A DNA stretch of 64,000 nucleotides from Candidatus Altiarchaeota archaeon. GTDB lineage: Archaea; Altiarchaeota; Altiarchaeia; IMC4; SCGC-AAA252-I15. The position numbers and the translations under genes are program-made. The DNA lies in assembly GCA_043804895.1 (NCBI GenBank), contig JAZDIN010000004.1, positions 72,887-136,886 on the forward strand, in the 5' to 3' direction. Under the pieces are notes generated by a model. The model did no database searches. It was not told where the DNA came from and saw only the letters and a list, made by a program, of their open reading frames with translations. Positions 2,110 through 35,770 of the stretch are shown in pieces (positions within the stretch are counted from its first letter, which is position 1; the number at the start of each line of letters is the position of its first letter).

Positions 2110-3186
2110 ATGAAAGCACTGGTAAATGAAGCATTACAAGGCGGTGAAATACGCGGGAGCGAGATAGGGTTTGACGAGTCCGAACAGCTTAGGATTGTAG
2201 TTATGGGAGCCGGCGGAGGCGGCGGAAACACCGTGAACCGGTTGTGTAAGATAGGGGTTAGCGGAGCCGAACTCGCCGCATGCAACACCGACGCGCAGGA
2301 CCTGAAGAAAATCGACCAGCGCATAACGAAAGTACTCATAGGAGCGAAGATAACAAGAGGCCTGGGCGCAGGAGGCTTCCCTGAGATGGGGATGAAAGCA
2401 GCCGAAGCAAGCAGGAACGACCTCGTCAACTACCTACAGGGGACGCACCTCATGTTCCTGTGCGCAGGAATGGGAGGCGGAACCGGAACAGGCGCAGCCC
2501 CAGTCATCGCGGAAGTCGGGAAAGAGGTCGGAGCCATAGTCGTTTCGATAGTCACCTACCCGTTCAAGCTGGAGCGTGCAAGGATAACCAAAGCCCGCGA
2601 GGGCATAGAAAAGCTGAGGAAGGCAGCTGACACGGTAATAGTCGTCGACAACAACAAGCTCGTCGAGTACGTGCCGAACCTTCCGATAGACAAATCATTC
2701 CTGATAGCTGATGAGATTGTCGCAAGAGCTGTGAAAGGGATAACAGAGACTATCAAGGAGCCGTCACTCATCAACCTAGACTTCGCGGACATACGCTCAG
2801 TCCTCGGTGGCGGAAAAGTCTCAGTCATAGGGATAGGAGACGGCGAAGGCCCTGACAAGGTAGAGCTTGGAGTCAGGAACACGCTGGAACACCCGCTATT
2901 GGACGTCGACTACAAGGGCGCTAAGGGGGCGCTAATCCACATAACAGGCGGACCTGACCTGACAATAGGAGACGCCAACAGGGTCGGAGAGCTCATAACA
3001 CAGGAGTTCGACCCATCAGCCAACGTCATGTGGGGAGCCAGAGTGAACCCGACATTCGAGGACAGGATTGAGATTATCAACATCGCAACAGGAGTGAAGT
3101 CTCAGCACATCCTCGGAGCAGGCTCAGACGACGGCGACGGGGACTACGAGAGGGAAACATCCGACTGGGACATCAGGTCGCTCTAG
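2110..3186 (+). CDS. ftsZ: cell division GTPase FtsZ
   Basis: [13 protein letters not shown] and the tubulin signature [16 protein letters not shown]. 358 aa. Confidence 0.95.
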
Positions 3187-3269
3187 GACATACATCCCAA
3201 TCCTAATACAACCACCCATTTAGGCTCCGCCCCACATCCGGTTTTATAGCATCCATCAGATATACTAAC

Positions 3270-7153: not shown

Positions 7154-8218
7154 TCAGTTCATCCTGTAGCGTAGTTTGGCTGCCATTCCCCCGAGTGAGC
7201 TTAACCTCTGTCCAGCTTCTGATTCGCTGTTGATTAGGTGGACTTTGCCTGCTGAGTTTGTGACTTGGTTCATCAGCGGTTCCGCGTGCGCTCTTTCGGC
7301 GAAGAAGAGTGCGTCGGTCACGAGGAGCATTTCAGCGGCGCCCGCGTTGACTGCGTCTGCCACTTCCTTCCGACCGTATGCTGCAAGTCCGGTGTCCTTG
7401 CCTATCTGTTTTAGTATGTCTTCGACGAGCCTGATGTCTTGGACTGAGTTGACTTCCTCGATAGTCCTTTGTATTGCTTCCCGTTTGAGGACCTCCTGTA
7501 TTCCGTTGCGTCCTGCGCTGCCTGTGTCTTCGATTGCGCATTTTCCAGCTAGTTCTTGATTTTCTTCCTTGAGGAATTTGAAGTAGTTGTTCTTCTCAAA
7601 TCCTGGCCCGGATAGTATCGCGTTGCCAGCGTTCTCCTTTTCCATGACGTTCCCGATGAGTTGGGTGAGTTGCCGGTAGAATTCGGCTTTGCGGGTCTCC
7701 CTTCCCTTCGCATCGTATTTTCCGCCGATGTTTGAGCCTATGTCATAGTATTCTAGCTTGGATTCCCTAAGGAGGGCCAGCGTGGCTTCTCCCTCATCAA
7801 GCGACACTATTATGACCTTAGGTCGTAGGGTGCTTTTGACCGCGTCGTTGAGGCGGTCCATCTCCGTCTTAGCCCACCGCTCCTTTATGATTGTCAACTG
7901 AGTGTCTGCGTCGACGTTGAGCGTGTGGTGGCTGCCTTGGCTGACTATGTCCTCGGGGCCTTCCTCGATTGTGCCTGAGACTCGCAGGACGCTGGTGTCT
8001 GATTTGAAGTCGGTCTTCTCGACTTTGACTGTCAATGTGATTGTCTTGCGTTCTCCTCCTGAGCTTTTGGTGTCGTCCTTGTCTTTGATGCGCCTCTGGC
8101 TCTTCCCCTTCACCAGGTCCCCGGAAGCGATGACCTGGCTGAGGTACCACAGGTCGTCGAGGCTCTCGCACCTGACCCTGACGAGCCCATGCCGCAAGTC
8201 CTTGTACTCTATCCTCAT
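7154..8218 (-). CDS. pelA: pelota (Dom34) mRNA surveillance / ribosome rescue factor
   Basis: N-terminus MRIEYKDLRHGLVRVRCESLDDLWYLSQVI. 354 aa with eRF1-like three-domain length, and C-terminal GGMAAKLRY. Confidence 0.88.
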   Translation of the reverse strand: MRIEYKDLRHGLVRVRCESLDDLWYLSQVIASGDLVKGKSQRRIKDKDDTKSSGGERKTITLTVKVEKTDFKSDTSVLRVSGTIEEGPEDIVSQGSHHTLNVDADTQLTIIKERWAKTEMDRLNDAVKSTLRPKVIIVSLDEGEATLALLRESKLEYYDIGSNIGGKYDAKGRETRKAEFYRQLTQLIGNVMEKENAGNAILSGPGFEKNNYFKFLKEENQELAGKCAIEDTGSAGRNGIQEVLKREAIQRTIEEVNSVQDIRLVEDILKQIGKDTGLAAYGRKEVADAVNAGAAEMLLVTDALFFAERAHAEPLMNQVTNSAGKVHLINSESEAGQRLSSLGGMAAKLRYRMN

Positions 8219-8271: not shown

Positions 8272-9426
8272 ATGGACTTCGACGTCGCAGTAATCGGAGC
8301 CGGCCCGGCAGGTTCCACAGCCGCTAGGGAATGCACGAAAGCAGGGTTGAGGACAGTTCTGGTGGAGAAGGAGAAGCTCCCAAGGTTTAAGCCGTGCGGC
8401 GGGGGGTTGACTGCGAAGACGTTGAAGGCATTAGGCTTCATAGTGCCCAAGGAGTATGTTCTAAGCCGTCTTAGCTCAGTCCGATTACACTATAAGGAAC
8501 TGTCTATCAGATACGACAGCGAGGAGACGATGGTAACTACAGTCGAACGCGACGGCTTCGATAAGCTGCTCGCAGATAAGGCGGTTGACGCCGGAGCAAC
8601 GCTCCTGGAAGGCACAAACGTCGTCGAGGTCAAAGTAAGCCGCGAGGGATGCGAGATAACCGCTGTCGGAGGGGATATCACAACATCTGTGGTAATCGGC
8701 GCAGACGGGGTGAACAGCACTGTAGCGAAGAATGTGAGGCCGCCGTTCAAGCCTGAAGATTTAGTGCTCGCTTATGAGGCTGAAGTCCCATCGAAGGACG
8801 CTGGAGGCAGCGTCTGCGACATATACTTCGACTGCGGTTGCATGGGCTACGGGTGGGTTTTCCCGAAGGGGAATCACACATCCGTCGGATTGGGGGGCGT
8901 GTTAAGCGGTTTCAGGGATTCGAGGAGGCTGTTCAACGAGCACATGAGGAGGGTGGGCTACAACGGAGACGTTGATGTTCACGTGCACCTCATACCGATT
9001 GGTAGCAACAGGACTGAGACAGTCTCTGACCGGGTCATCCTCGTGGGGGATGCGGCAGGTTTCGCTGAACCCCTCACAGGAGAAGGCATATACTACGCAA
9101 TAAGGTCGGGGCAGCTGGCTGCTAAGACGATAACGGAGGCTCAAAGCAGAGGAGACTACAGTGAACACGCTCTCCAACAGTACGAGACCGCATGGAGGAG
9201 CGAATTCGGCGAAGAATTCAGGAGGTCCCGGAAGGCTATGAGGGGATTGTTCATGGCAGGCCCCCTATCGATGAGAATCCTATTCTCAAACAAGGAAATC
9301 ATAGAGAAATTCAGCGACATACAGGCCGGCAGGATGACATACAAGGAATTCAAAAACTGGTTCATAAGAAGAACACCGCATCTTATGGCTGGAACAGCCG
9401 TTAAAATGGTGAGTGGGAAGCATTAA
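8272..9426 (+). CDS. geranylgeranyl reductase family flavoprotein
   Basis: FAD fingerprint DVAVIGAGPAGSTAAR, LVGDAAGF and PLTGEGIYYA motifs. Confidence 0.85.
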   Translation: MDFDVAVIGAGPAGSTAARECTKAGLRTVLVEKEKLPRFKPCGGGLTAKTLKALGFIVPKEYVLSRLSSVRLHYKELSIRYDSEETMVTTVERDGFDKLLADKAVDAGATLLEGTNVVEVKVSREGCEITAVGGDITTSVVIGADGVNSTVAKNVRPPFKPEDLVLAYEAEVPSKDAGGSVCDIYFDCGCMGYGWVFPKGNHTSVGLGGVLSGFRDSRRLFNEHMRRVGYNGDVDVHVHLIPIGSNRTETVSDRVILVGDAAGFAEPLTGEGIYYAIRSGQLAAKTITEAQSRGDYSEHALQQYETAWRSEFGEEFRRSRKAMRGLFMAGPLSMRILFSNKEIIEKFSDIQAGRMTYKEFKNWFIRRTPHLMAGTAVKMVSGKH

Positions 9427-9460
9427 ATAAAGACAACTTCCGAGTATTATATGGAACCAT

Positions 9461-9883
9461 ATGGTCAATAAATTGCGCAGTAGAGAGGAAGTGAAAGAAC
9501 CTGGGACAATTAAGGGATTCCCTGAGAAGCCTAAACTCGTTTGGGATGACCTTTTGGACAGGATGGAGATCAAATCGGCTGTGGAAACCAGATATGACGA
9601 GAAGAGTAAGGCTGGAGAAAGTCGCGTGATCCCTGCTATTGAGGTTACAGGACTCACAATATGGGATGACCTCCAGGTTACGATAAAGAAGGGGCCGGAC
9701 CAAGCCGAAGCTCGCCTGAAAAGAGTCAAAGTCCGTGTGGAAAGCAGACAGAACAAGAGGACGGGTGAGAGGGTGCATGTGATTCCCCCGATAGATGTGA
9801 CAGGAGACTCAGGGTACCATGAAGGAAGCCAAGTCACGCTAACAATAGAGCGGAAAAACAGCGGGAAATTCTATAAGGCGTAA
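9461..9883 (+). CDS. hypothetical protein with an internal duplication
   Basis: Two related segments: ESRVIPAIEVTGLTIWDDLQVTIKK and GERVHVIPPIDVTGDSGYHEGSQVTLTIER. No family recognised. Confidence 0.4.
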   Translation: MVNKLRSREEVKEPGTIKGFPEKPKLVWDDLLDRMEIKSAVETRYDEKSKAGESRVIPAIEVTGLTIWDDLQVTIKKGPDQAEARLKRVKVRVESRQNKRTGERVHVIPPIDVTGDSGYHEGSQVTLTIERKNSGKFYKA

Positions 9884-9894
9884 TAATCTGACAG

Positions 9895-10803
9895 TTAGTT
9901 GAACGCGTTGAACAACAGCAGTGCGATTGGCGAAAGGAGCGTTGTGAGCACTATCGCTGATGAGACAAGCTCCGCGTCAAGCTTATACTGGTCTGCGAGG
10001 ACGAAATTCGTCACCGCAATGGGCATCGCCGCCTCTATGAGCGAGACCTCGAATCCAAGGCCCCTGAGGCCGAATAGGCGGGCGAAGGCGATGTAGAGCA
10101 GCGGGAAGACTGCCATCTTGAGGGCTGCGACTGAGAGGTTAAGCCTGATGTTTGCGAGGGGGTTACGGCCGTGCATGAATATGCCGAGGGAGAGTAGGGC
10201 GAGGGGTGCTGTCACATGTCCTATGAGGCTGAGGGATGTGGAAAGCACAACCGGCAGCTGGAGCGAAAGGTAAAGGAAGCCGAGGCCAGCGAGGACGCTG
10301 ATTAGGAGCGGGTTGAAAAGGAGGCGGCGCAGTATTTCGGAAAGTTTCATGCGCATCGAAGAGTATTCGAGCATCGCAATCCCCAGTGAGAAGATGATGA
10401 TGGTGTAGATGGTGGATACTATCACCACCACCGGCACAGCCTCCCTGCCTAACGCTAATTCAACAACAGGGTAGCCCATGTACACCACGTTCCCGAAGAA
10501 GGCCGTGATGAGTAGGACTGAAGCGAGCTTGCGGGGGAGGCGCAGGAGGACTGAGGCGACTACAACCAGTGCCATCATCGCGATTATCGCGCAGGCATTG
10601 GATAGTATGAGCGGCAAGTCCGCGAACGATGTCGAGCCGGCCTCCACAAGGCTTATGAACATCAAAGCCGGCAACGTCACATAATAGATGAAGCTGTTGA
10701 ACTTCCCGTAATCCCCGGCCCCAACCACCCTAAGATGACGCGCAAGCCAGCCTACACCGATGACAATGAAAACCGAAACTATCGCACTCAACACCTCAAA
10801 CAT
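9895..10803 (-). CDS. AEC (auxin efflux carrier) family transporter
   Basis: 302 aa and about 10 hydrophobic segments. The N-terminus MFEVLSAIVSVFIVIGVGWLARH is typical of the family. Confidence 0.75.
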   Translation of the reverse strand: MFEVLSAIVSVFIVIGVGWLARHLRVVGAGDYGKFNSFIYYVTLPALMFISLVEAGSTSFADLPLILSNACAIIAMMALVVVASVLLRLPRKLASVLLITAFFGNVVYMGYPVVELALGREAVPVVVIVSTIYTIIIFSLGIAMLEYSSMRMKLSEILRRLLFNPLLISVLAGLGFLYLSLQLPVVLSTSLSLIGHVTAPLALLSLGIFMHGRNPLANIRLNLSVAALKMAVFPLLYIAFARLFGLRGLGFEVSLIEAAMPIAVTNFVLADQYKLDAELVSSAIVLTTLLSPIALLLFNAFN

Positions 10804-11177: not shown

Positions 11178-13269
11178 ATGTCGGATAAACAGACGACAGT
11201 TGGGGGGGATTCTAGAAGACCATACTTAACCCCGTTTTTCCTGCAGTGCATAATCGACAGCATATACTCCCCGATATTCTCGGTTGACGAAAACTACATC
11301 TACACCAGCTTCAACAAGGGCCATGCCGCAGCCATGAAGTCCATCTACGGCGTAGACATCGAATTCGGAAAAAGCATTCTGGATTACATGAGTGTCGAAG
11401 AAGACCGCGCAACCGCGAAGGCAAACCTAGACCGTGCCTTGCGCGGAGAATCCTTCATCGAAGAGGCCTATTCAGGCGATACGAAATTCTCAAGGCATTA
11501 TTTCGAAGTCAGACACACACCCCTCAAGGACGAAACCGGAACCGTATACGGCGTGAGCGTCTGCGCAAAGGATGTCACCGAACGCAAGCAGGCGCTGAAT
11601 GCGGTGCAGGCGAGTGATTCGAAGTTACAAGCCGCCATAAATATTCTGCCGGTGGGACTCTGGATTATTGACGCGGAAGGACAGATTATAACCAGCAGCG
11701 CTGCCGCCCAGCGAATCTGGGGGGGGGGTACATTACGTTGACCTAAACCAGCTTGGTGAATACAAGGGCTGGCGGACCGACAGCGGTAAACTGGTAGAAT
11801 CTCATGAATGGGCGGGGGCTCGGGCCCTTGAGAAGGGTGAAACTACAACTGAAGAGGAAGTCGAGATCGAGTGCTTTGATGGCACGCACAAGATTATCCT
11901 CGACTCTGCCGTGCCGCTGCGCAAAAGCGACGGGAGCATCTGTGGCGCCGTTACCATCAACCAGGACATCACCGAACGCAAGAAAGCGGAGGCTGCGCTG
12001 AAGGAGTCTGAGGTAAAATTCAGATCAATATTTGACAATGCAGCTGAGGGGATATTGTTAGCCGATCTGGAAACTAAGAAATTTTACATGGGCAATAATG
12101 CAATTTGCCGGATGCTTGGCTACAGCATGGAGGAAATTACAGGTTTGGGGGTCATGGACATTCATACTGAAAAAGACAGCCCTTATGTTATTGATCAATT
12201 TGAAAGGCAAGCAAAAGGAGAGTTTGTTTTAGCAAAAGATTTACCCGTTAAGAGAAAAGACGGCAGTGTTTTTTATGCTGACGTTACTTCAACAACCGTC
12301 AAAATTGCCGGAAAGACATACCTACTCGGTTTTTTCCACGACAACACTGAACGCAAGAGGATGGAGGATGCGATAAAAACCCGCGAGGAAAAATACTGCA
12401 GCCTATTCGAAAACTCGCGCGACGCCCTCATGATACTTGAACCCCCATCCTGGAAGTTCACAAGCTGTAATAATGCAACCCTGAAAATGTTCAATGCGAG
12501 AAACATGGAGGAATTCACCTCATTGGGGCCTTGGGATGTATCCCCGAAAACGCAGCTGGACGGCAGTGACTCCGGAGAGAAAGCCCAAGAGATGATTGGG
12601 ACTGCCATCCGCGATGGTAGCAACTTTTTCGAGTGGACTCACAAGCGGATAGACGGAGGGAAGTTTCCAGCCACGATCCTTTTGACCCGGATGGAAGTGT
12701 GTGGAAAGGCCTTATTACAGGCGACAGTCAGAGACATCACCGGCCTCAAGGAGGCGGAGGTTAAATTGCGGAATAGTCGGGAGTACCTAGAGAGGGTAAT
12801 AAACAGCATCGCCGACCCAGTCTTTGTGAAAGATGTTAACTCCCGGTTTGTCCTTGTCAACGATGCCTTATGCAATATGTGGGGGTTAAGCAGGGAGAAT
12901 ATGCTCGGGAAAACACTTGCCGAATCACTGCCTGAGGACCAGATAGAACACTTCCTCAGAGTCGACAAACTAGTGCTCGAATCTGGGCAGGAGAACGTGA
13001 GCGAGGAACTGCTCACTGCAAAAGATGGAAAAGTCATGAGTATAGTCACAAAGAAGACACGCTATGTCGACAACGAAGGGAACATGTTCTTAGTGGGCGT
13101 GATACGCGACATCACCAAAAGGAATATAATGGAGAATGAACTCAAGAAACGCGTTCTTGACCTTGAAAGGTTACTGAGAATAACCGTGGACAGGGAACTT
13201 ACGATGATAGCTCTCAAGAAGGAGATCAACAAAATGCTGGATGAGGCCGGCAAGACCCGGAGATACTAG
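11178..13269 (+). pseudogene. multi-PAS sensor protein interrupted by a +1 frameshift in a G10 tract
   Basis: ORF 11178-11741 (PAS) stops 4 codons after G10 (11719-11728). The +1 frame is open from the tract to 13269 and continues the same PAS domain (...YVDLNQLGEYKGWRTDSGKL...INQDITERKKAE). Removing one G restores a single ORF of about 697 aa with about five PAS repeats and no kinase domain. Confidence 0.75.
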
Positions 13270-16807: not shown

Positions 16808-17197
16808 TCATTTGACGAACTCTACGCCCACCACGCCCCTGAAGTCCTCGTCGCCGGTTAGCATCCTAATCCCTAATCCCTGGGCTAGCACATAGTTGAC
16901 GCAGTCGGTATATGATAGGCTACGTTTTTCCTTACGCATTTTACTCCTGAATACTCCGGCTTCCTTGATAACACCAATGTCATTCAACGGTAGAATCTTG
17001 AAGTTGCCAAGTATATTGCCCAGAACCTCTTCGGCGATTCCCGCATCTTCCGCGTGAAATATGCGAGAGTATACTTCCATCAGCGACAGCATTGAAGTGT
17101 AATCTTCACCAGTGAACTTCTCAAAGTACTTCCTGTAGGATTCCCTCCCCTCAAAGTAGTATGCTATGAAGGCGTAGGTGTCGAACAGGTAGGGCAT
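16808..17197 (-). CDS. vapC: PIN-domain toxin (VapC-like)
   Basis: MPYLFDTYAFIAYY... with acidic residues at PIN positions (D at the N-terminus, E40-region, DxxxY, TGDEDF). Immediately downstream of an AbrB-type antitoxin. Confidence 0.8.
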   Translation of the reverse strand: MPYLFDTYAFIAYYFEGRESYRKYFEKFTGEDYTSMLSLMEVYSRIFHAEDAGIAEEVLGNILGNFKILPLNDIGVIKEAGVFRSKMRKEKRSLSYTDCVNYVLAQGLGIRMLTGDEDFRGVVGVEFVK

Positions 17198-17198
17198 T

Positions 17199-17432
17199 CT
17201 ATTTCCATCCACTATCTATCTCAGCCACTATATCCTCAGTGCTCTTCCCTCTAAATCCGTTGGAGTTCTTGAGTACCCCGAACAGCTCCTTAGTCGACTT
17301 CACAGGTCTCAACACAATGCTGTTTTCCTGCACGGTCTCAACCAGTTTGTCCCCGGCCTTCAAGCCCAATTTATCCCTAACACCCTTCATCAACACAATC
17401 TGCCCCTTAGACGATAAAGTAACACAATCCAT
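17199..17432 (-). CDS. vapB: AbrB/SpoVT-type antitoxin (VapB-like)
   Basis: LSSKGQIVLMKGVRDKLGLKAGDKL swapped-hairpin motif. 77 aa. Confidence 0.8.
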   Translation of the reverse strand: MDCVTLSSKGQIVLMKGVRDKLGLKAGDKLVETVQENSIVLRPVKSTKELFGVLKNSNGFRGKSTEDIVAEIDSGWK

Positions 17433-17497
17433 CTTACCAAATAGTATAGAGTTTTACATTAATAAATAAGTAAGACAGCCAATGAAAAGTAAAATAT

Positions 17498-17579
17498 GGC
17501 TCCCTTCAGGGAGCTGACGCATCAACTCCTCAAAATCGCCGAGCGATTTTGGGATGCTAGTTGCCAGAGCAACTTCGCG
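17498..17579 (+). repeat. left arm of an inverted repeat of about 80 nt flanking the GNAT-toxin cassette
   Basis: GGCTCCCTTCAGGGAGCTGACGC...TCCTCAAAATCGCCGAGCGATTTTGGGATGCTAGTTGCCAGAGCAACTTCGCG. Its reverse complement recurs at 18772-18856. Confidence 0.8.
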
Positions 17580-17765
17580 CATAAAACTGCCCGGAACATA
17601 TCCAGCAAGCCCGAGTGTATTCATCTATTGCAAAAGGATGCAAATGAGCCGTAGCGTTAGCGTGGTCTGATGCAAAAGGGTGGAGAAACTCAGTAGGAGA
17701 GCCTTATCTGGCAGGGCATAAAGTATATATCCTAGCGTTACTTATTGAGTATTACAGGCGATTTT

Positions 17766-17939
17766 ATGGCACGACCAATCGATTTTTCCACAGACCTGAA
17801 CGAGGAGGACAGCATGCGGTTTGTCAACGAGTTGATTAGAGTGGATTCTTTACCAGCGAACGACAAGGAACTGGTCAAACACAGGAAGTTCCTAGAGGAA
17901 TGCGCCATTAAGGCAAGCAAGGTCAAGTGGCTTGCTTAG
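17766..17939 (+). CDS. hypothetical small protein (57 aa)
   Basis: ORF MARPIDFSTDLNEEDSMRFVNEL..., convergent with the GNAT pseudogene and overlapping its stop. No family recognised. Confidence 0.3.
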   Translation: MARPIDFSTDLNEEDSMRFVNELIRVDSLPANDKELVKHRKFLEECAIKASKVKWLA

Positions 17940-18534
17940 AACTCCCTCAACAGGTCGAGATACATCTTGATGGTTTCAGAATCTGTTTTCTTCTTGCTTA
18001 GAACCTTGAACTCGTTGTGTTCATAGAATCCGACGGCATCGGAGTATGCGTCAACAACTATAAAACGGCAGCCAATCTTCTCTGACTCTTTCAATGCCAG
18101 ACCGATTATTGTCTTGATTATCTCCGTGCCAACACCTTTTAGCATGAAGTTCTTGTCAACACCCAGACGAGCAATCAACAGGGCCGGGAAGAGTTTGTAC
18201 TTCTTCCCCCGTTGACGTAGTATCTGCAATGCCCTTTCAGTCGGCTCTATAGCGAACATACTCAGCAAAAGTACCCCAACACATTGCCCTTTTGCATGAA
18301 GAGATACGTTACCGCCGCCTTCCCTTTTAGGTGGTCTAATGCATCTTCCTGGAGGAATTCATTCAGGTCTTTATCACCGCAGTCGAATCCATTCGTCAAC
18401 GCAAGATTGCCCTCATCCAATCTGATTATCCTGGCATCAGACAAGTCCGTGACAGCAGCGCCCATACTACCTATATTGTGGCGAGAGGATAATAAGTTGC
18501 TCGACATACCATTTTGTAGATAAACTCTAGGCAC
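17936..18534 (-). pseudogene. GNAT-type acetyltransferase toxin (TacT/AtaT-like), frameshifted
   Basis: The N-terminal ORF (FDCGDKDLNEFLQEDA...VLGYFC*) and C-terminal ORF (LLSMFAIEP...FPALLIARLGVDKNFMLKGVGTEII...) are two halves of one GNAT. The frames join if one T is added to the T4 run (plus-strand A4 at 18267-18270). No DUF1778/RHH antitoxin lies upstream. Confidence 0.7.
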
Positions 18535-18670
18535 TAAAATCAGGTGAGTCTTTAAAGACGTTGGAGATTCGAACCCAATAGGTTAATGCGCAGCTGGAAG
18601 ATTTGAACCTGAACTATATAACCTATCTGGACTGGCTAAAACGGCAGTATAATAGACGTGAGAAAATAAT

Positions 18671-18739
18671 TGCTCCCTTCGGGATTTCCCACAAGACGTT
18701 CGTCTTGCTTAAATCCCGAAGGCGTACAGTGCATGCACC
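18671..18739 (+). repeat. 69-nt palindromic element built on the tRNA-Glu 3' end (copy 1)
   Basis: TGCTCCCTTCGGGATTTCCCACAAGACGTTCGTCTTGCTTAAATCCCGAAGGCGTACAGTGCATGCACC. The first 17 nt equal the reverse complement of the tRNA-Glu 3' end. Nearly identical to 20423-20491. Confidence 0.85.
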
Positions 18740-18771
18740 CTCGAAGAGGGTGCTATCCGCTTCGGTGCGAT

Positions 18772-18856
18772 GCGAAGTTGCTCTGGCAACTAGCATCCCA
18801 AAATCGCCCGGCGATTTTGAGGATCTGACGCGTCAGCTCAATGCTCCCTTCGAGCC
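18772..18856 (-). repeat. right arm of the inverted repeat flanking the GNAT-toxin cassette
   Basis: Reverse complement: GGCTCGAAGGGAGCATTGAGCTGACGCGTCAGATCCTCAAAATCGCCGGGCGATTTTGGGATGCTAGTTGCCAGAGCAACTTCGC. It also shares GGGAGCATTGAGCTGACGC with the sequence just 3' of tRNA-Glu. Confidence 0.8.
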
Positions 18857-19064
18857 ATAAACAGTTTGTTCAATTAAGGGGAAACTCCGGCAGAAAAGGG
18901 CACATTTTGGCTCAACAACCTCCCTTCCATCCCGGCCAAATAACAAGGTTGGATGAAGGGTCAGGTGTAGTATTTATAGTTGAGATATGCTATATGTTAG
19001 CAATAACCTCCCCATCTTTAGGTAGGCTTGTCCTATCTAACGATGGGCCCTCTGTGTGCTTCTG

Positions 19065-19610
19065 ATGAAACGGGCTGTTATTTTCATAGACGGTAGCAAC
19101 TTCTACCACTCCTGTTTGGACTCATTGGGCGCCGCCGACGTCAACTTCGGCAAGTTCGCCGCCAAACTATGCAGGAGCTATGAGCTTGTTGAAATCAGGT
19201 ACTATAACGCATCCATAAATCAGCAGATGGAGCCGGAGAAGTACAGGGAACAGCAGAGGTTCTTCGCCAAGGTGGCCAAGATACCGAAGGTGAAACTCAT
19301 ACTCGGGAAACTGAAGGCACGATTTGAGACGTGCACCCAATGCAGCAAGAAGACCAGGTATTTCGTGGAGAAAAATACCGACGTAAACATAGCAATTGAC
19401 CTGGTTGACTTGGCCCACAAGAATGTGTACGATATAGCGGTTATGGTCACAGGAGACGGCGATTTCAGCGGAGCAGTCAGGTTGGTCAGAACCTTCAGCA
19501 AGGAAGTCGAACACGCAAGGTTCAGGAAGAACTACTCGACAGAACTCAACAGGGCCTGCAACAGGGAAATAATACTAGACGAGGAATACATGAGAGATTG
19601 TTTACTATAA
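19065..19610 (+). CDS. NYN-domain (LabA/DUF88-like) putative RNase
   Basis: AVIFIDGSNFYHS and DVNIAIDLVDLAHKNVYDIAVMVTGDGDFSGAV motifs. Start taken at MKRAV. Confidence 0.8.
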   Translation: MKRAVIFIDGSNFYHSCLDSLGAADVNFGKFAAKLCRSYELVEIRYYNASINQQMEPEKYREQQRFFAKVAKIPKVKLILGKLKARFETCTQCSKKTRYFVEKNTDVNIAIDLVDLAHKNVYDIAVMVTGDGDFSGAVRLVRTFSKEVEHARFRKNYSTELNRACNREIILDEEYMRDCLL

Positions 19611-19684
19611 CCCACCCTTCCAGGCTAATGACTTGGGTTCCTCGAAGACCCAAGACTGCAGACAAATTCCAACCGTAAAGATAT

Positions 19685-19700
19685 TGCTCCCTTCGGGATT
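19685..19700 (+). repeat. 16-nt copy of the tRNA-Glu 3' end
   Basis: TGCTCCCTTCGGGATT matches 21407-21422 exactly. It is followed by a truncated T-arm-like CCGGGTTCGAGTC. Confidence 0.8.
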
Positions 19701-19781
19701 CCTGTACCGGGTTCGAGTCTCAAATTTTAATTACTAATTAAAGATGAGACATGCAAGTATAAAAATTCTCGGACATAATGA

Positions 19782-20027
19782 CTATCGATACACTTTGTCT
19801 CTATGTTCAAAACAGTTTATGAGTATCCTATCCTGTTCAACTCTATAAATAATCCTAAATGGTGGGACTCGTAGACTTCTGTGGTTTTTTAGTTCATGCT
19901 TCAGTGGCTTTCCCGCATCTGGTTGTTGTTCGAGCTTCTTGATTTGTTTGATTATCCTCAATCGAGTTGCATTATCCTTTATCTTCTTATACTCTTCCGC
20001 AAACTCCTGTGAGAAAATTATTTCCAT
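19782..20027 (-). CDS. relE: RelE/ParE-family toxin
   Basis: 81 aa. KPLKHELKNHRSLRVPPFRIIYRVEQDRILINCFEHRDKVY is the typical RelE C-terminal pattern. Downstream of an AbrB-type antitoxin. Confidence 0.8.
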   Translation of the reverse strand: MEIIFSQEFAEEYKKIKDNATRLRIIKQIKKLEQQPDAGKPLKHELKNHRSLRVPPFRIIYRVEQDRILINCFEHRDKVYR

Positions 20028-20030
20028 GAC

Positions 20031-20306
20031 TCATGCTATCAGAAGGTGATCTATCTCTTCATCTCCCATCTCCGTACTCGCCTTAACCACTTTACCGGAC
20101 TTTATCTGGGATTCGCTTTTAGTTATGCGCTCAATCAACTTTATTTCCTCCGATAACGCTGCATTATTTACCAACTTCAGGAGGATGTTACTCCCTTTGT
20201 TGAATACTATAAACTTTGATTGCGGCCCCAATCCGGCGTCCCTCCTAACTTCAGCAGGTATAACTATCTGACCATTCTGGCTCATCTTTGTTATAGCAAC
20301 TTCCAT
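20031..20306 (-). CDS. AbrB/MazE-type antitoxin
   Basis: MSQNGQIVIPAEVRRDAGLGPQSKF swapped-hairpin motif. Start taken at MEVAITK. Confidence 0.75.
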   Translation of the reverse strand: MEVAITKMSQNGQIVIPAEVRRDAGLGPQSKFIVFNKGSNILLKLVNNAALSEEIKLIERITKSESQIKSGKVVKASTEMGDEEIDHLLIA

Positions 20307-20422
20307 ATACAACACCTACAATACGTTTTAATATTAAAACATAGCATATTTGAGTTTAAAAATAGGGATTTACATAAAATCCCCCCTTCAGGATATATCC
20401 GAGTTTCGAACCCTCATAGGGA

Positions 20423-20491
20423 TGCTCCCTTCGGGATTTCCCGCAAGACATTCGTCTTGCTTAAATCCCGAAGGCGTACAGTGCATGCACC
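20423..20491 (+). repeat. 69-nt palindromic element built on the tRNA-Glu 3' end (copy 2)
   Basis: TGCTCCCTTCGGGATTTCCCGCAAGACATTCGTCTTGCTTAAATCCCGAAGGCGTACAGTGCATGCACC. Differs from copy 1 at two positions. Confidence 0.85.
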
Positions 20492-20607
20492 TTGACGGCA
20501 TAAAACATATGCTGATTGATACTATCCAAGAGTTAGTGAACATTATTCATTTTTATTCTTTCATTGCAGGTAATTAACTAGTCAGCATAAGATGGAGGAC
20601 TCTAAAG

Positions 20608-21078
20608 ATGGATAAACACATCACCTTCGGAATCTGGACGGCATTCGCGGTCTTCGCGATTGGAATACTAGTAGGCGCAATGATGATGGGGAACGCAATC
20701 CCAGCAGGACAATTCAGCACTCCTGACACTTCAACACAAAGATCAGTTGAGCCGGCTAACATAATACCAACCCCCCTTGAAGGGGAAGAAGATGATGGGT
20801 GTTGTATTTATAAGGATGAGACGTATTCGGGGGAGACGACCGAGGAAGAATGCGAGGATGATGAGGGCACCTGGTATGATGAAACGTGTGAAGAGATAAT
20901 ATGTGGTTTGTATGTTGGGAACCCTACGCTGGAGGAAGAGTGCATTACTGCCGAAGAATGTGAAGAAAAAAATGGCGGTGCGATAAATAAGATATGTCCA
21001 AGACTGGGTTCAGGTGACCCGCTAGGCGCCATAGACATAGAGGAGGACATAGTCTGTTGTTTACACCCGGGTGATTAG
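20608..21078 (+). CDS. membrane-anchored acidic Cys-rich protein
   Basis: N-terminal TM helix (FGIWTAFAVFAIGILVGAMMMG), then a Glu/Asp-rich region with 10 Cys (GCCIY, EECEDDEG, CEEIICG, EECITAEECEE, IVCC). No family recognised. Confidence 0.5.
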   Translation: MDKHITFGIWTAFAVFAIGILVGAMMMGNAIPAGQFSTPDTSTQRSVEPANIIPTPLEGEEDDGCCIYKDETYSGETTEEECEDDEGTWYDETCEEIICGLYVGNPTLEEECITAEECEEKNGGAINKICPRLGSGDPLGAIDIEEDIVCCLHPGD

Positions 21079-21312
21079 GTTTCGCTCAATTAGAGTGGCC
21101 ATCCTCTTGGGGAAGAAAGTGCCCGCGGAAAGAAAACACCTAGTGCATGTGTCTTCGAAGAAGTCGTTATTCATTCGTCTTATGCGTTCTGATGGGTCGA
21201 AAGACCCATCAACACCCGTAGTTTTCGCGAGCCTTTTGATAAAAGGCTCAATGCTCGCTTCGAGGAGCCCTTCCTTTGCGAAAGAAAGCGTATAGTGCAT
21301 GTACCTTCTGAT

Positions 21313-21360
21313 ATGTGGCGTAGCCACTGGCTACGACACGCGCCCGAGACAATGTCTCGG
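21313..21360 (+). repeat. multi-hairpin module copy, inside a hairpin-rich tract of about 340 nt (21060-21406)
   Basis: ATGTGG-CGTAGCCACTGGCTACG-ACACGCGC-CCGAGACAATGTCTCGG. Confidence 0.7.
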
Positions 21361-21406
21361 TCGCGAGGCACCATCCGCTCCAGTGCGAGCTGATGCGTCA
21401 GCTCAA

Positions 21407-21568
21407 TGCTCCCTTCGGGATTTGAACCCGAGTCGCCGGATTTCTCCAGGCAGGACCTAACGGTTCTGCCACCCGTTTTTCTTGGGGGGTGAAGCACCTT
21501 TCTTTTTTGAAAAGAAAGGGGCTCTCTGCGAAAGTCCGGTATGATAGGCCGGTCTACACTAAGGGAGC
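21407..21568 (-). tRNA. tRNA-Glu(UUC) with an 87-nt intron in the anticodon loop
   Basis: GCTCCCT-TA-GTGTAGACCGGCCTATCAT-A-CCGGA-CTTTCG|intron|A-TCCGG-CGAC-TCGGG-TTCAAAT-CCCGA-AGGGAGC-A. The D-arm GTGTAGNCCGGCCNATCAT is the archaeal tRNA-Glu signature. The junction could be 37/38 or 38/39. Confidence 0.85.
21442..21528 (-). other. tRNA-Glu intron (87 nt)
   Basis: CAGAGAGCCCCTTTCTTTTCAAAAAAGAAAGG...AAGAAAAACGGGTGG.... Both ends resemble the tRNA-Thr intron (GAGCCCCTTTCTTTC... and ...AAGAAAAACCGGGTC). Confidence 0.7.
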
Positions 21569-21629
21569 GTAGATTTGTTTTGTTGGTTATCCTCTCAGTA
21601 TATCTGAGATTCATATTAGATTAGTGTAA

Positions 21630-21713
21630 TCCGGTATGATAGGCCGGTATCTGGCTCGAAGAGCCGGATATGCGCGACCGCCGCAGCGTCGCATGCATCT
21701 ACACTAAGGGAGC
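21630..21713 (-). pseudogene. partial tRNA-Glu copy B: positions 1-31 with a 50-nt insert in the D-loop and no 3' half
   Basis: GCTCCCTTAGTGTAGA-[50 nt, 21648-21697, two hairpins]-CCGGCCTATCATACCGGA, then TTACACT and the hairpin AATCTCAGATATACTGAGAGGATA. The exon parts are identical to the complete gene. Confidence 0.6.
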
Positions 21714-21768
21714 GTTTGTGCGCTCTTTTTATCTATCCTCTCCGCGTGGAGATTCATTGCTCCAGTAG

Positions 21769-21850
21769 TCCGGTATGATAGGCCGGTGTCGGGCATGGGA
21801 GTGCCCGAGACGCCCGACGCGGATGCGTCGGATGCGTCTACACTAAGGGA
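21769..21850 (-). pseudogene. partial tRNA-Glu copy A: positions 3-31 with a different 50-nt D-loop insert
   Basis: (AA)TCCCTTAGTGTAGA-[50 nt, 21787-21836, two hairpins]-CCGGCCTATCATACCGGA, then CTACTGG and the hairpin AATGAATCTCCACGCGGAGAGGATA. The first two acceptor nucleotides do not match. Confidence 0.6.
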
Positions 21851-21878
21851 TTGGTTTTGTTATTAGGGGTCTTGTTTT

Positions 21879-34741: not shown

Positions 34742-35770
34742 ATGTCTTCTGAGTTGCGTTTGCGTCTTCGTAAGGTTAGGGAGGGTATGCGTGAGGCTAG
34801 AGTGGGGGCTTTTTATGTCACCCGTGACGTTGACGTGCTCTATCTTAGCGGGCAGGAGAGCGGCCGTATCCTGGTGACAGACAAGGATGCGATACTGTGG
34901 GTTAAGGATATATATGAGGAGCTTTATGATGCGACCTATTCTTCAGCCGGTTATCCTCTTGAGGTGAGGGAGTATGATAAGGAGAAGTTGGAGGGGACGT
35001 TGCGCGGCCTCCGTAAGAAGGCAATCGGAGTCTGCTCTTATGATGCTGCAGCCGCGCTGAGGAAGGTTTCCGGAAAGAGGAGTGTGGTGGCTGATGTGGT
35101 GAAGTCCGCGCGGAGTGTGAAGACGAAGCATGAGATTGAGTTAATCAGGAGATCATGCAACATGGCGAAGGCTGGGATGAGGAAGGCCCGCGAAGTCGTC
35201 CGCAAGGACGTGAGGGAGTTGGACGCCGTCGCAGAAGTAGAAGCCGAACTTAGGAGGCGCGGTTCCGAGAAGGCTCCCTTCGGCAGCGGGATGCTCCTTG
35301 CCTCAGGCCGATTCAGCTCCGACATACACGCGAAAGCTTCTTTGAGGAGGATTCAACGCGGCACCGTCGTCGTCGACTTGGGGGCCTGCCATAGGGGGTA
35401 TTTTTCTGACATGACGAGGACGCTCATGGTCGGTGCACCGACGGTTGATGAGAGGCGTGTGATGGAGTCTGTGAGGAATCTCAGGGATGAGACGATAGAC
35501 TACATCAGGCCTGGTATGTTGGCCTCAGAAGTCCATAGGCACGTTGAAGGGAGGATTAGTGGGTTGGGTTTCAATTTCTATCACCTCACAGGACACGGCG
35601 TCGGCTTGGAGGTGCATGAGAGCCCCAGCTTCAGTCCGGATTCGAAGGTGAAGTTGAGGGATGGTATGGTGTTCACTGTCGAACCTGGGATTTACGTGCC
35701 TAAGAAATTCGGAGTCAGGTTCGAGGACACGGTGCTTCTGACAAGAAACGGCTGCAAGAAACTAACCTAA
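34742..35770 (+). CDS. M24-family Xaa-Pro aminopeptidase/dipeptidase
   Basis: Pita-bread metal ligands: VVVDLGA...YFSDMTRT, HLTGHGVGLEVHE, FTVEPGIY, VRFEDTV. Confidence 0.85.
   Translation: MSSELRLRLRKVREGMREARVGAFYVTRDVDVLYLSGQESGRILVTDKDAILWVKDIYEELYDATYSSAGYPLEVREYDKEKLEGTLRGLRKKAIGVCSYDAAAALRKVSGKRSVVADVVKSARSVKTKHEIELIRRSCNMAKAGMRKAREVVRKDVRELDAVAEVEAELRRRGSEKAPFGSGMLLASGRFSSDIHAKASLRRIQRGTVVVDLGACHRGYFSDMTRTLMVGAPTVDERRVMESVRNLRDETIDYIRPGMLASEVHRHVEGRISGLGFNFYHLTGHGVGLEVHESPSFSPDSKVKLRDGMVFTVEPGIYVPKKFGVRFEDTVLLTRNGCKKLT

Follow-up and report, generated by a model that had tools for sequence, protein, structure and literature searches.

Serial integration at tRNA genes is textbook biology. 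In this study, we analyzed a stretch of 64,000 nucleotides from a Candidatus Altiarchaeota archaeon (contig JAZDIN010000004.1, positions 72,887 to 136,886; hereafter "the window"), in which a tRNA-Glu gene adjoins an array of small units separated by further copies of its own 3′ end. Several described systems come close to such an arrangement. In streptococci, cis-mobilizable elements (CIMEs) related to integrative and conjugative elements (ICEs) or integrative and mobilizable elements (IMEs) have lost their integration genes, keep attL and attR and accrete in tandem at the 3′ end of tRNA genes (PMC5704250). For the tycheposon islands of Prochlorococcus, the part of the account considered here describes tyrosine recombinases that target tRNAs, successive integration that pushes older elements inward, scattered partial tRNAs and degenerate remnants, and adaptive or defensive cargo (bioRxiv 10.1101/2020.12.28.424599). 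Integrons and clusters of attC sites lacking an integron integrase (CALINs) are known as well, archaeal ones included (PMC9668308). Finally, archaeal elements with tyrosine recombinases, such as the integrated mobile genetic elements (iMGEs) of thaumarchaea, integrate at tRNA genes, are flanked by attL/attR repeats and form arrays by re-use of the site (PMC6563490).

For the window, we propose that the repeated 16–17-mers are attachment (att) cores derived from repeated site-specific integration at tRNA-Glu, and that the units between them are CIME-like and integrase-less in their present state. We estimate the probability of this reading at about 75%.

An array of tRNA-Glu-derived cores

The 16-mer TGCTCCCTTCGGGATT occurs exactly at positions 18671, 19685, 20423 and 21407 of the window, always on the plus strand and in direct orientation, while only 0.06 matches are expected by chance (shuffle mean) and none of 100 shuffles reached four. 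Read in tRNA sense on the minus strand, three of the four exact copies extend to the 17-mer AAATCCCGAAGGGAGCA; the copy at 19685 carries a G at the extra position and reads GAATCCC... The gene, the cores and the left end of the array are located as follows.

21407–21568, minus strand: tRNA-Glu(UUC) gene, the putative attB and anchor of the array (exon 1 21568→21529, intron 21528→21442, exon 2 21441→21407)
21407–21423, minus strand: core C0, AAATCCCGAAGGGAGCA, from the T-loop through the discriminator base of the tRNA
21252–21264, minus strand: degenerate core C1′, CTCGAAGCGAGCA, followed by TTGAGC and a hairpin, as at C0 and C4′
20423–20439, minus strand: core C2, an exact 17-mer, preceded by a type-1 arm (CCTTCGGGATTT, inner hairpin, AAATCCCGAAGG)
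19685–19701, minus strand: core C3, GAATCCCGAAGGGAGCA, with the type-2 arm GAGACTCGAACCCGGTACAGG
18842–18852: degenerate core C4′, 11 nt, CGAAGGGAGCA
18671–18687: core C5, exact
17497–17578, plus strand: inverted copy of the core-proximal part of mini-unit M (18772–18858), starting with GGCTCCCTTCAGGGAGC; left end of the recognisable array

A preliminary description of this DNA had listed the four same-orientation copies and two shorter matches. The four copies are confirmed by the shuffle analysis, and the match at 18842 is real: its 11 nt are part of a 28-nt match to 21390–21417 (96%) that extends through the flank. The second short match, listed at 17499, is present in the sequence but is not a direct repeat. 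It belongs to the palindrome GGCTCCCTTCAGGGAGC at 17498, the tip of a 68-nt inverted copy (17511–17578) of 18772–18839 (94%), and its apparent direct orientation is due to this palindromic sequence. The inverted repeat encloses the GNAT unit and mini-unit M described below and could be the trace of an inversion, or of an insertion in inverted orientation, at a core. The degenerate cores at 18842 and 21252 show traces of older integration events. Outside of 17.5–21.9 kb, the sole core-like match in the window is a 13-mer with two mismatches (35272–35284, GGCTCCCTTCGGC), in agreement with the expectation that the core is not scattered; it is probably a chance match, although a further tRNA-like sequence concealed by an intron could lie there.

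The tRNA-Glu gene itself had been placed correctly at 21407, with the correction that an intron interrupts it. The spliced 75-mer was called as tRNA-Glu(ttc) by ARAGORN, whose intron mode returned i(37,87) at the same place, so that the predicted intron comprises 87 nt after position 37 (37/38). Because of this interruption, default ARAGORN and Rfam reported no tRNA anywhere in the window; Rfam gave nothing at gathering thresholds over the 64 kb and only noise at E ≤ 10 between 17 and 22.3 kb. The exons match the intronless tRNA-Glu sequences of the related contigs L111, L103 and L089 (L numbers denote the contigs used for comparison) at 100% and 92–98% identity. The tRNA-Glu genes of L001, L003, L005 and L089 contain introns too, those of L005 and L089 being different, while the genes of L002, L004, L006, L204 and L211 are intronless; intron presence among close relatives is therefore patchy. 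The block GAGCCCCTTTCTTTTnnAAAAAGAAAGGTGCTTCACCCCC is common to the introns of the window, L001 and L003.

Reading away from the tRNA gene, the cores delimit five integrase-less units in the order E1, E2 (AbrB-RelE), E3 (NYN), M and E5 (GNAT).

20439–21406: unit E1, 968 bp, with U1 (21252–21406), U2 (about 21080–21251), a Cys-rich membrane open reading frame (ORF) and a type-1 arm (20439–20491)
20608–21078, plus strand: Cys-rich membrane ORF of E1, 156 aa, with an N-terminal hydrophobic segment
19701–20422, minus strand: unit E2, 722 bp, with an AbrB/MazE antitoxin (20031–20315) and a ParE/RelE toxin (19782–20027), both by Pfam
18853–19684, plus strand: unit E3, with an NYN-domain protein (19056–19610; Pfam NYN, 2.8e-22)
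18671–18858, minus strand: mini-unit M, no ORF; C4′, P′ arm, hairpin run, palindrome GTGCATGCAC, type-1 arm and core C5
17579–18670, minus strand: unit E5, with a frameshifted GNAT gene (17936–18534, minus strand), a small convergent ORF (17745–17939, plus strand) and two T-loop boxes
16808–17432, minus strand: VapBC-like pair (PIN toxin and MazE/AbrB antitoxin, by Pfam), just left of the last repeat, GC content 44–48%

Pfam and PADLOC were applied to the single-function modules named in the preliminary description (GNAT with a small ORF, NYN, RelE/AbrB and a Cys-rich protein, with VapBC outside), of which two call for comment. The GNAT gene lies in two overlapping frames (17936–18534), and its Acetyltransf_1 match crosses the junction weakly (E 1e-3); the 156-aa Cys-rich protein matched no family, and a homolog search returned only the protein itself. 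The units have a GC content of 38–48% (38% in E2) compared with 52% for the window, and the VapBC-like pair may belong to the island since its GC content is low as well. Both strands carry cargo genes, and AT-rich stretches of 100–200 nt precede each of them. The NYN protein matched the PADLOC candidate defence family HEC-09 at 3.9e-28, far better than the generic NYN model, and judging from this match its gene is probably an anti-virus gene rather than one for a housekeeping nuclease. Exact-protein look-ups of the window's S10, EF1a and NYN proteins found none of them on record.

Presence and absence of whole units, and integrases in relatives

A scan of metagenomes for the core yielded, among the matches listed (at least 120), three true relatives (L089, L103 and L111). 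L211, a longer contig that is identical to L111 over 10.1 kb, was recovered through the closest AbrB homolog. EF-1a puts the window in the Altiarchaeota, with L001 as best match (86% identity), and the gene order S7, EF-2, EF-1a, S10, tRNA-Glu is conserved.

In L211, an intronless tRNA-Glu gene ends in a core (9868–9884) and is followed by the AbrB-RelE unit, a second core (GAATTCCGAAGGGAGCA, 10607–10623), a radical-SAM unit, a third core (GAATCCCGAAGGGGGCA, 12330–12346) and unrelated genes. Positions 20439→19685 of the window align with 9868–10623 of L211 over 756 nt at 88.6% identity, and at the level of single residues this homology starts and stops exactly at the two cores. Upstream of it, L211 continues into the tRNA body and the window into a hairpin arm; downstream, beyond the second core, the NYN unit of the window stands against the radical-SAM unit of L211. 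E1, which corresponds to a 984-bp period (20439–21422) in the window, is absent from L111/L211. All breaks lie at cores, and E2 is a discrete unit in both genomes with different neighbours. Such presence/absence polymorphism with breakpoints at the repeat, as expected for tRNA-targeting integrative elements, had been predicted for strains or relatives, and L211 indeed differs from the window by whole units.

The second line of evidence comes from integrases at the same site. In L103, as well as in L204 and L205, which come from two separate assemblies, the tRNA-Glu gene is followed by its core, a 91-nt mini-unit, a second exact core and, immediately after it, a gene for a 423-aa tyrosine recombinase. 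In L001, a 403-aa integrase on the other strand adjoins the tRNA gene (PF00589, 7.6e-19) and shares 37% identity over 381 aa with that of L103; both are intact beside the core. L002 retains an integrase remnant comprising the first 61 codons (N-terminal). The proposal of several tandem site-specific integrations is thus supported by relatives that carry a tyrosine integrase, or what is left of one, at the same tRNA-Glu core. Further members of the integrase family occur on virus- or plasmid-like contigs rich in small ORFs; three of them (L206, L207 and L210) contain neither a tRNA-Glu core nor a tRNA and therefore gave no attP. A further integrase remnant, suspected after the third core of L211 from a short DNA resemblance to L001, was rejected when tblastn was negative.

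The mini-units of the window share one architecture. U1, U2 and M have TTGAGC and a hairpin right after the core and RCATGCACT about 115–125 nt further on; U1 and M close with an arm hairpin followed by a core or core relic, while U2, in which no core can be recognised, continues into the 3′ end of the Cys-rich ORF. Their shared motifs occur at this locus only, and both ends of M have counterparts at the ends of E1, with 96% identity over 28 nt for one and 97% over 69 nt for the other. Mini-units fold far better than shuffled sequences on both strands (z-scores of −5.6 and −6.4 for M), and since both strands fold equally well, folding points neither to one strand nor to a role as RNA or as DNA. 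They look like elements reduced to two arms, either deletion products or miniature non-autonomous elements, and cargo-less units of 155–187 nt as in the window are unusual.

This common architecture is one of two points in favor of an origin with no recombinase, by tandem duplication, unequal crossing-over or slippage between short tRNA-like repeats. The other is found in L005, where the 5′ part of tRNA-Glu has been partially copied twice in tandem, as perfect 68-nt duplicates with flanking sequence included, so that duplication does happen at the locus. As an explanation of the array we nevertheless consider it extremely improbable: the sequences and cargo between the cores are unrelated, which means that the units are not duplicates, and 16 nt is very short for homologous exchange. 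Moreover, relatives have an integrase next to this core, the boxes in the arms are arranged in an attP-like manner, and the GC content of the units is unlike that of the host.

Still less probable is an explanation at the RNA level, in which the pieces would belong to a split or multi-piece, trans-spliced tRNA or serve as tRNA-like processing signals that punctuate transcripts. The ingredients seem to be present, as the intron-containing gene is preceded by additional, insert-bearing 5′ pieces and followed by additional 3′ ends, and in Nanoarchaeum split tRNA-Glu genes share a 3′ half. However, the orphan 3′ copies hold only the last 16–17 nt (positions ~58–73) and are without the T-stem 5′ strand, the variable loop and the anticodon-stem 3′ strand; positions 38–57 are missing from every candidate combination, while the intact gene is predicted to be cis-spliced at 37/38. 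A split tRNA was rejected, as no combination of pieces makes a full one. We saw no leader/trailer pairs with complementarity, the comparison with L211 reveals modules at the level of DNA, and the single orientation of the cores, with cargo on both strands, argues against a function as signals in cargo transcripts.

The extra 5′ pieces belong to the same dynamic locus and are arranged as follows.

21588–21852, minus strand: two partial copies of the tRNA-Glu 5′ part, A (about 21852→21735) and B (21715→about 21590)

Copies A and B each contain an insert of about 50 nt with two hairpins in the D-loop, and each copy ends in AUGAA-hairpin-GGAUA. Partial copies of the first 16–17 nt of tRNA-Glu (GCTCCCnTAGTGTAG) together with hairpins precede the real gene in several Altiarchaeota: two in the window, one each in L001 (11711–11815) and L003, two in L005, at least one in L204 (9560–9760) and two in L211 (9600–9790), one of the latter without TAGTGTAG; there are none in L002, L004, L006 and L089. 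Each unit in the window, L001, L204 and L211 terminates in the invariant AUGAA, a hairpin and GGAUA, and across seven copies compensatory changes occur at four of the five pairs of the stem. This motif is confined to these leaders and is not in Rfam; its GA/AG flanks recall a kink-turn, with no flanking canonical stem evident. In addition, near-perfect short hairpins (CCTTTTCTTTC...GAAAGAAAAGG) recur in the tRNA intron, the mini-units and the tRNA flanks of several Altiarchaeota (window 21080–21406, 20439–20491 and 18687–18841; L003 ~11964–12000; L204 ~9420–9470) and may form a lineage-specific family of small palindromic repeats.

On the other side of the gene, a pelota homolog directly follows tRNA-Glu in L003 (12222–13154) and L004 (5464–6552). 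In the window it lies at 7154–8218, 13 kb from tRNA-Glu, and the DNA in between encodes a geranylgeranyl-reductase-like protein, a permease, PAS sensors, a histidine kinase and four tandem CheY-like receivers (11.2–16.7 kb). The DNA that varies at tRNA-Glu may extend far beyond the 4 kb marked by repeats; alternatively, the distance to pelota may reflect an unrelated rearrangement.

Conserved arms, age and possible mobility

Two types of arm precede the distal cores, and both occur on units of differing cargo. The type-1 arm (20439–20491 and 18687–18739; 97% identical over 69 nt including the core) pairs CCTTCGGGATTT with AAATCCCGAAGG round an inner hairpin; the mini-unit of L103 has the same layout with the pairing kept, while the sequence of the inner hairpin differs from the window. 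The type-2 arm (...GAGACTCGAACCCGGTACAGG and core) is found at 19685 and ahead of both distal cores of L211, that is, on two cargos, and is conserved in sequence, with a sequence box and no conserved fold. This box, RGGTTCRARWC, equals the left half of the T-arm of tRNA-Glu. The 64 kb contain five copies where 0.65 are expected; one belongs to the tRNA and the other four to arms beside cores.

20403–20413 (minus strand) and 19709–19719 (plus strand): T-loop boxes of E2, inverted, 9 and 8 nt from the flanking cores
18566–18576 and 18600–18610, minus strand: T-loop boxes of E5

Given these distances and the inverted orientation, a circularised E2 would carry box, core and box in this order, and L211 keeps an inverted T-loop box before each distal core. 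We infer from this that the arm layout is attP-like, with an integrase that would recognise the T-loop box. The AbrB-RelE pair also occurs in L212, from an organism of lower GC content (42%), at 77% nucleotide identity restricted to the genes and promoter. There it is flanked by a 38-nt imperfect direct repeat (2476–2513 and 3157–3194) that includes a T-loop-like box, GAGGATTTsAACC on the given strand; two very similar boxes stand 33 nt apart in the window, with nothing between them, just inside the GNAT unit (18561–18625). These observations hint at a wider range of tRNA-targeting elements with which the pair would travel.

Between the window and L211, the synonymous divergence (dS) is 0.89 for AbrB and 0.83 for RelE (about 0.85), similar to the values of 0.96–1.22 for S10, EF-1a, EF-2 and S7; E2 is therefore about as old as the host split. 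A recent horizontal transfer of AbrB-RelE had been suspected from the 94% identity over the first 270 nt but is not supported, given that dS resembles that of host genes and that only the non-coding arms show the high identity. The arm from the core to the AbrB start (P′) is identical at 104 of 116 positions and the arm from the RelE stop to the distal core (P) at 75 of 81 (90–93%), and the distal 17-mer at 16 of 17, compared with 57% for the spacer between S10 and tRNA-Glu. With 0.5–0.6 taken as neutral identity, the binomial tail probability is ≤ 3e-11 for the arms and lies between 1e-4 and 2e-3 for the distal core. As this core lies outside any tRNA, something other than tRNA function keeps it, and the simplest reading is continued use in recombination. 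Alternatives for the arms are promoter, operator or terminator roles of some of their parts. The preliminary description had offered two options, eroded islets or cassettes mobilised in trans; arm and distal-core conservation in E2 over a dS of about 0.85 leans away from pure erosion.

Several points weigh against the proposed reading of the array. As the preliminary description had noted, no integrase or fragment is visible: tblastn with the L001 and L103 integrases and the family hidden Markov model (HMM) applied to six-frame ORFs were both negative in the window, which covers 64 kb of the 141-kb source contig. No fragment lies beside any core either (tblastn at E ≤ 10, HMM), and the locus thus lacks the mark of a split integrase of the Sulfolobus spindle-shaped virus (SSV) type. 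No junction of an excised circle was found in the collections scanned (IMG/VR and the metagenome matches listed); in IMG/VR, the core gave three unrelated matches, and arm types 1 and 2 and the L103 integrase gave none. With its host-like dS, E2 fits a fixed islet passed on vertically better than a unit that moved recently, and arm conservation could reflect the toxin-antitoxin (TA) promoter/operator held by the P′ arm and a terminator that the P arm may hold. The comparison at unit resolution covers only two genomes. Finally, circles of 91–187 bp are very small for tyrosine-recombinase chemistry.

A rival reading is that the units are inert fossils, i.e., surviving pieces of full-size elements that integrated serially and decayed, with nothing moving any more and the ends kept for ordinary reasons such as TA promoter/operator function or termination. 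The window without integrase, the degenerate cores at 18842 and 21252, the frameshifted GNAT gene and the decayed integrase of L002 all agree with this explanation, as does a presence of E2 at the site since before the split of window and L211. Decay is also the usual fate of CIMEs (PMC5704250) and, in the part of the account considered here, of tycheposon islands (bioRxiv 10.1101/2020.12.28.424599). We nonetheless regard it as somewhat unlikely. Four cores remain exact, and the non-tRNA distal core of E2 matches the tRNA at 16 of 16 positions in the window, with one difference in the 17-mer of L211, despite a proportion of synonymous differences (pS) of about 0.5. The 81-nt P arm is 93% conserved with its inverted T-loop box kept, and a paralogous arm stands on the other cargo of L211. 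Arms are common to units of different cargo, and independent erosion is not expected to yield arms-only units, yet M, U1, U2 and the L103 mini-unit exist.

The opposite extreme is a dedicated, integron-like capture platform with tRNA-Glu as primary site, integrase-less cassettes as the normal form and hairpin arms recognised by structure like attC. Most units are indeed small (155–1092 bp) and single-function with mainly TA or defence cargo, as in chromosomal integrons; their ends are conserved with variable cargo, the arms are under constraint, the type-1 pairing is kept between window and L103 while the inner hairpin differs, and the mini-units are strongly structured on both strands. However, the integrases of the relatives are generic archaeal tyrosine recombinases. 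Their best model is XerA-like (93 bits against a 220-bit cut-off), and they fall far below the cut-offs for integron integrases, with 31–46 bits against 265 for TIGR02249 and 19 against 435 for NF011946. In L103 and L001, their genes occupy positions inside the array, as in an ordinary element, instead of preceding a primary site; cassettes occur on either strand, each with an upstream region of its own, type-2 arms are conserved by sequence and box rather than by fold, and only three arrays are known. Such a platform is very unlikely in our view, and the term integron-like used in the preliminary description holds as an analogy only: the integrases are not IntI, and the sites are derived from a tRNA rather than being attC.

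Returning to serial integration as the preferred reading, the enzyme would be a tyrosine integrase of the family found beside the same tRNA in related Altiarchaeota, with the T-loop and 3′ end of tRNA-Glu as target and strand exchange presumably inside the 16-nt identity. At every event, the copy brought by the incoming element would rebuild the tRNA 3′ end, while the earlier core copy and the DNA behind it would be pushed farther from the gene, giving a head-to-tail chain. In the circle form, the two ends of a unit would be joined across one core, for example as ...GAGACTCGAACCCGGTACAGGAATCCCGAAGGGAGCATCCCTATGAGGGTTCGAAAC... It is nearly as likely as not that the units remain open to excision, reshuffling or co-transport whenever an integrase acts in trans, encoded at another place in the genome or brought by an incoming element. 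In L103, the mini-unit stands in tandem with an integrase-bearing element, the configuration required for CIME mobilisation in cis. A far broader claim, that in Altiarchaeota and perhaps other DPANN archaea (Diapherotrites, Parvarchaeota, Aenigmarchaeota, Nanoarchaeota, Nanohaloarchaeota) tiny integrase-less units are the normal mobile currency, moved at a tRNA-derived site by a tyrosine integrase in trans, appears clearly unlikely. If true, it would amount to a functional integron built from a tRNA T-arm, with arms kept by selection and the cargo-less units of 91–187 nt as miniature non-autonomous elements.

If the units are competent for recombination, they would provide a simple archaeal route for the exchange of TA and defence genes that is independent of integrons and docks at a tRNA T-arm. 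The L103/L001 integrase family and the 17-nt core with its T-loop boxes form a testable pair. In this array, the anchoring tRNA is hidden by an intron, and pipelines that look for a tRNA plus an integrase will therefore miss such islands.

Comparison with described systems

Judged as an att-flanked island, the locus has direct repeats identical to the 3′ part of the tRNA, and an integrase inside the element is absent from the window and present in L103/L204 and L001. In comparison with CIMEs, the units likewise have no integration genes, keep their att sites and stand in tandem at a tRNA 3′ end: E1, E2 and M are without recombinase and have cores at both ends, the proximal one of M being degenerate. 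Unlike CIMEs, the array is archaeal, has no conjugation functions and contains several cargo-less units. The units measure 0.16–1.1 kb, whereas CIMEs range from kilobases to tens of kilobases.

With tycheposon islands, as far as the part of the account considered here goes, the array shares serial tRNA integration, displaced older units, partial tRNAs, remnants and defensive cargo. It differs from them in the domain of life, the integrase family, the absence of a replication module or fragmented integrase, and the single-gene units. An integrase-less unit whose arms are conserved over deep divergence, as in the array, does not appear in that part of the tycheposon account.

Short, mostly single-function cassettes, sites in one orientation, TA cargo and an array without adjacent integrase are features in common with integrons and CALINs. 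In contrast to these, the sites consist of a tRNA-derived 16–17-nt core with arms, there is no attI/Pc organisation, and the cassettes have upstream regions of their own; the core does not conform to GTTRRRY. As for the arms, those of type 1 fold into a long hairpin whose centre varies, and those of type 2 are conserved in sequence rather than in fold. The cases described for thaumarchaeal iMGEs are full-size, integrase-bearing elements or proviruses, whereas the window holds a chain of five integrase-less mini-elements. A literature search returned no description of integrative elements of such a kind for Altiarchaeota.

Overall, the array is an archaeal analogue of CIMEs and tycheposon islands and not an integron. 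What is unusual about it is a chain of tiny integrase-less units whose sites and arms are intact at a divergence that has half saturated synonymous sites. It departs from the known cases in the host phylum, the very small size of the units, the units without cargo and the evidence for long-term constraint on the arms of an integrase-less unit.

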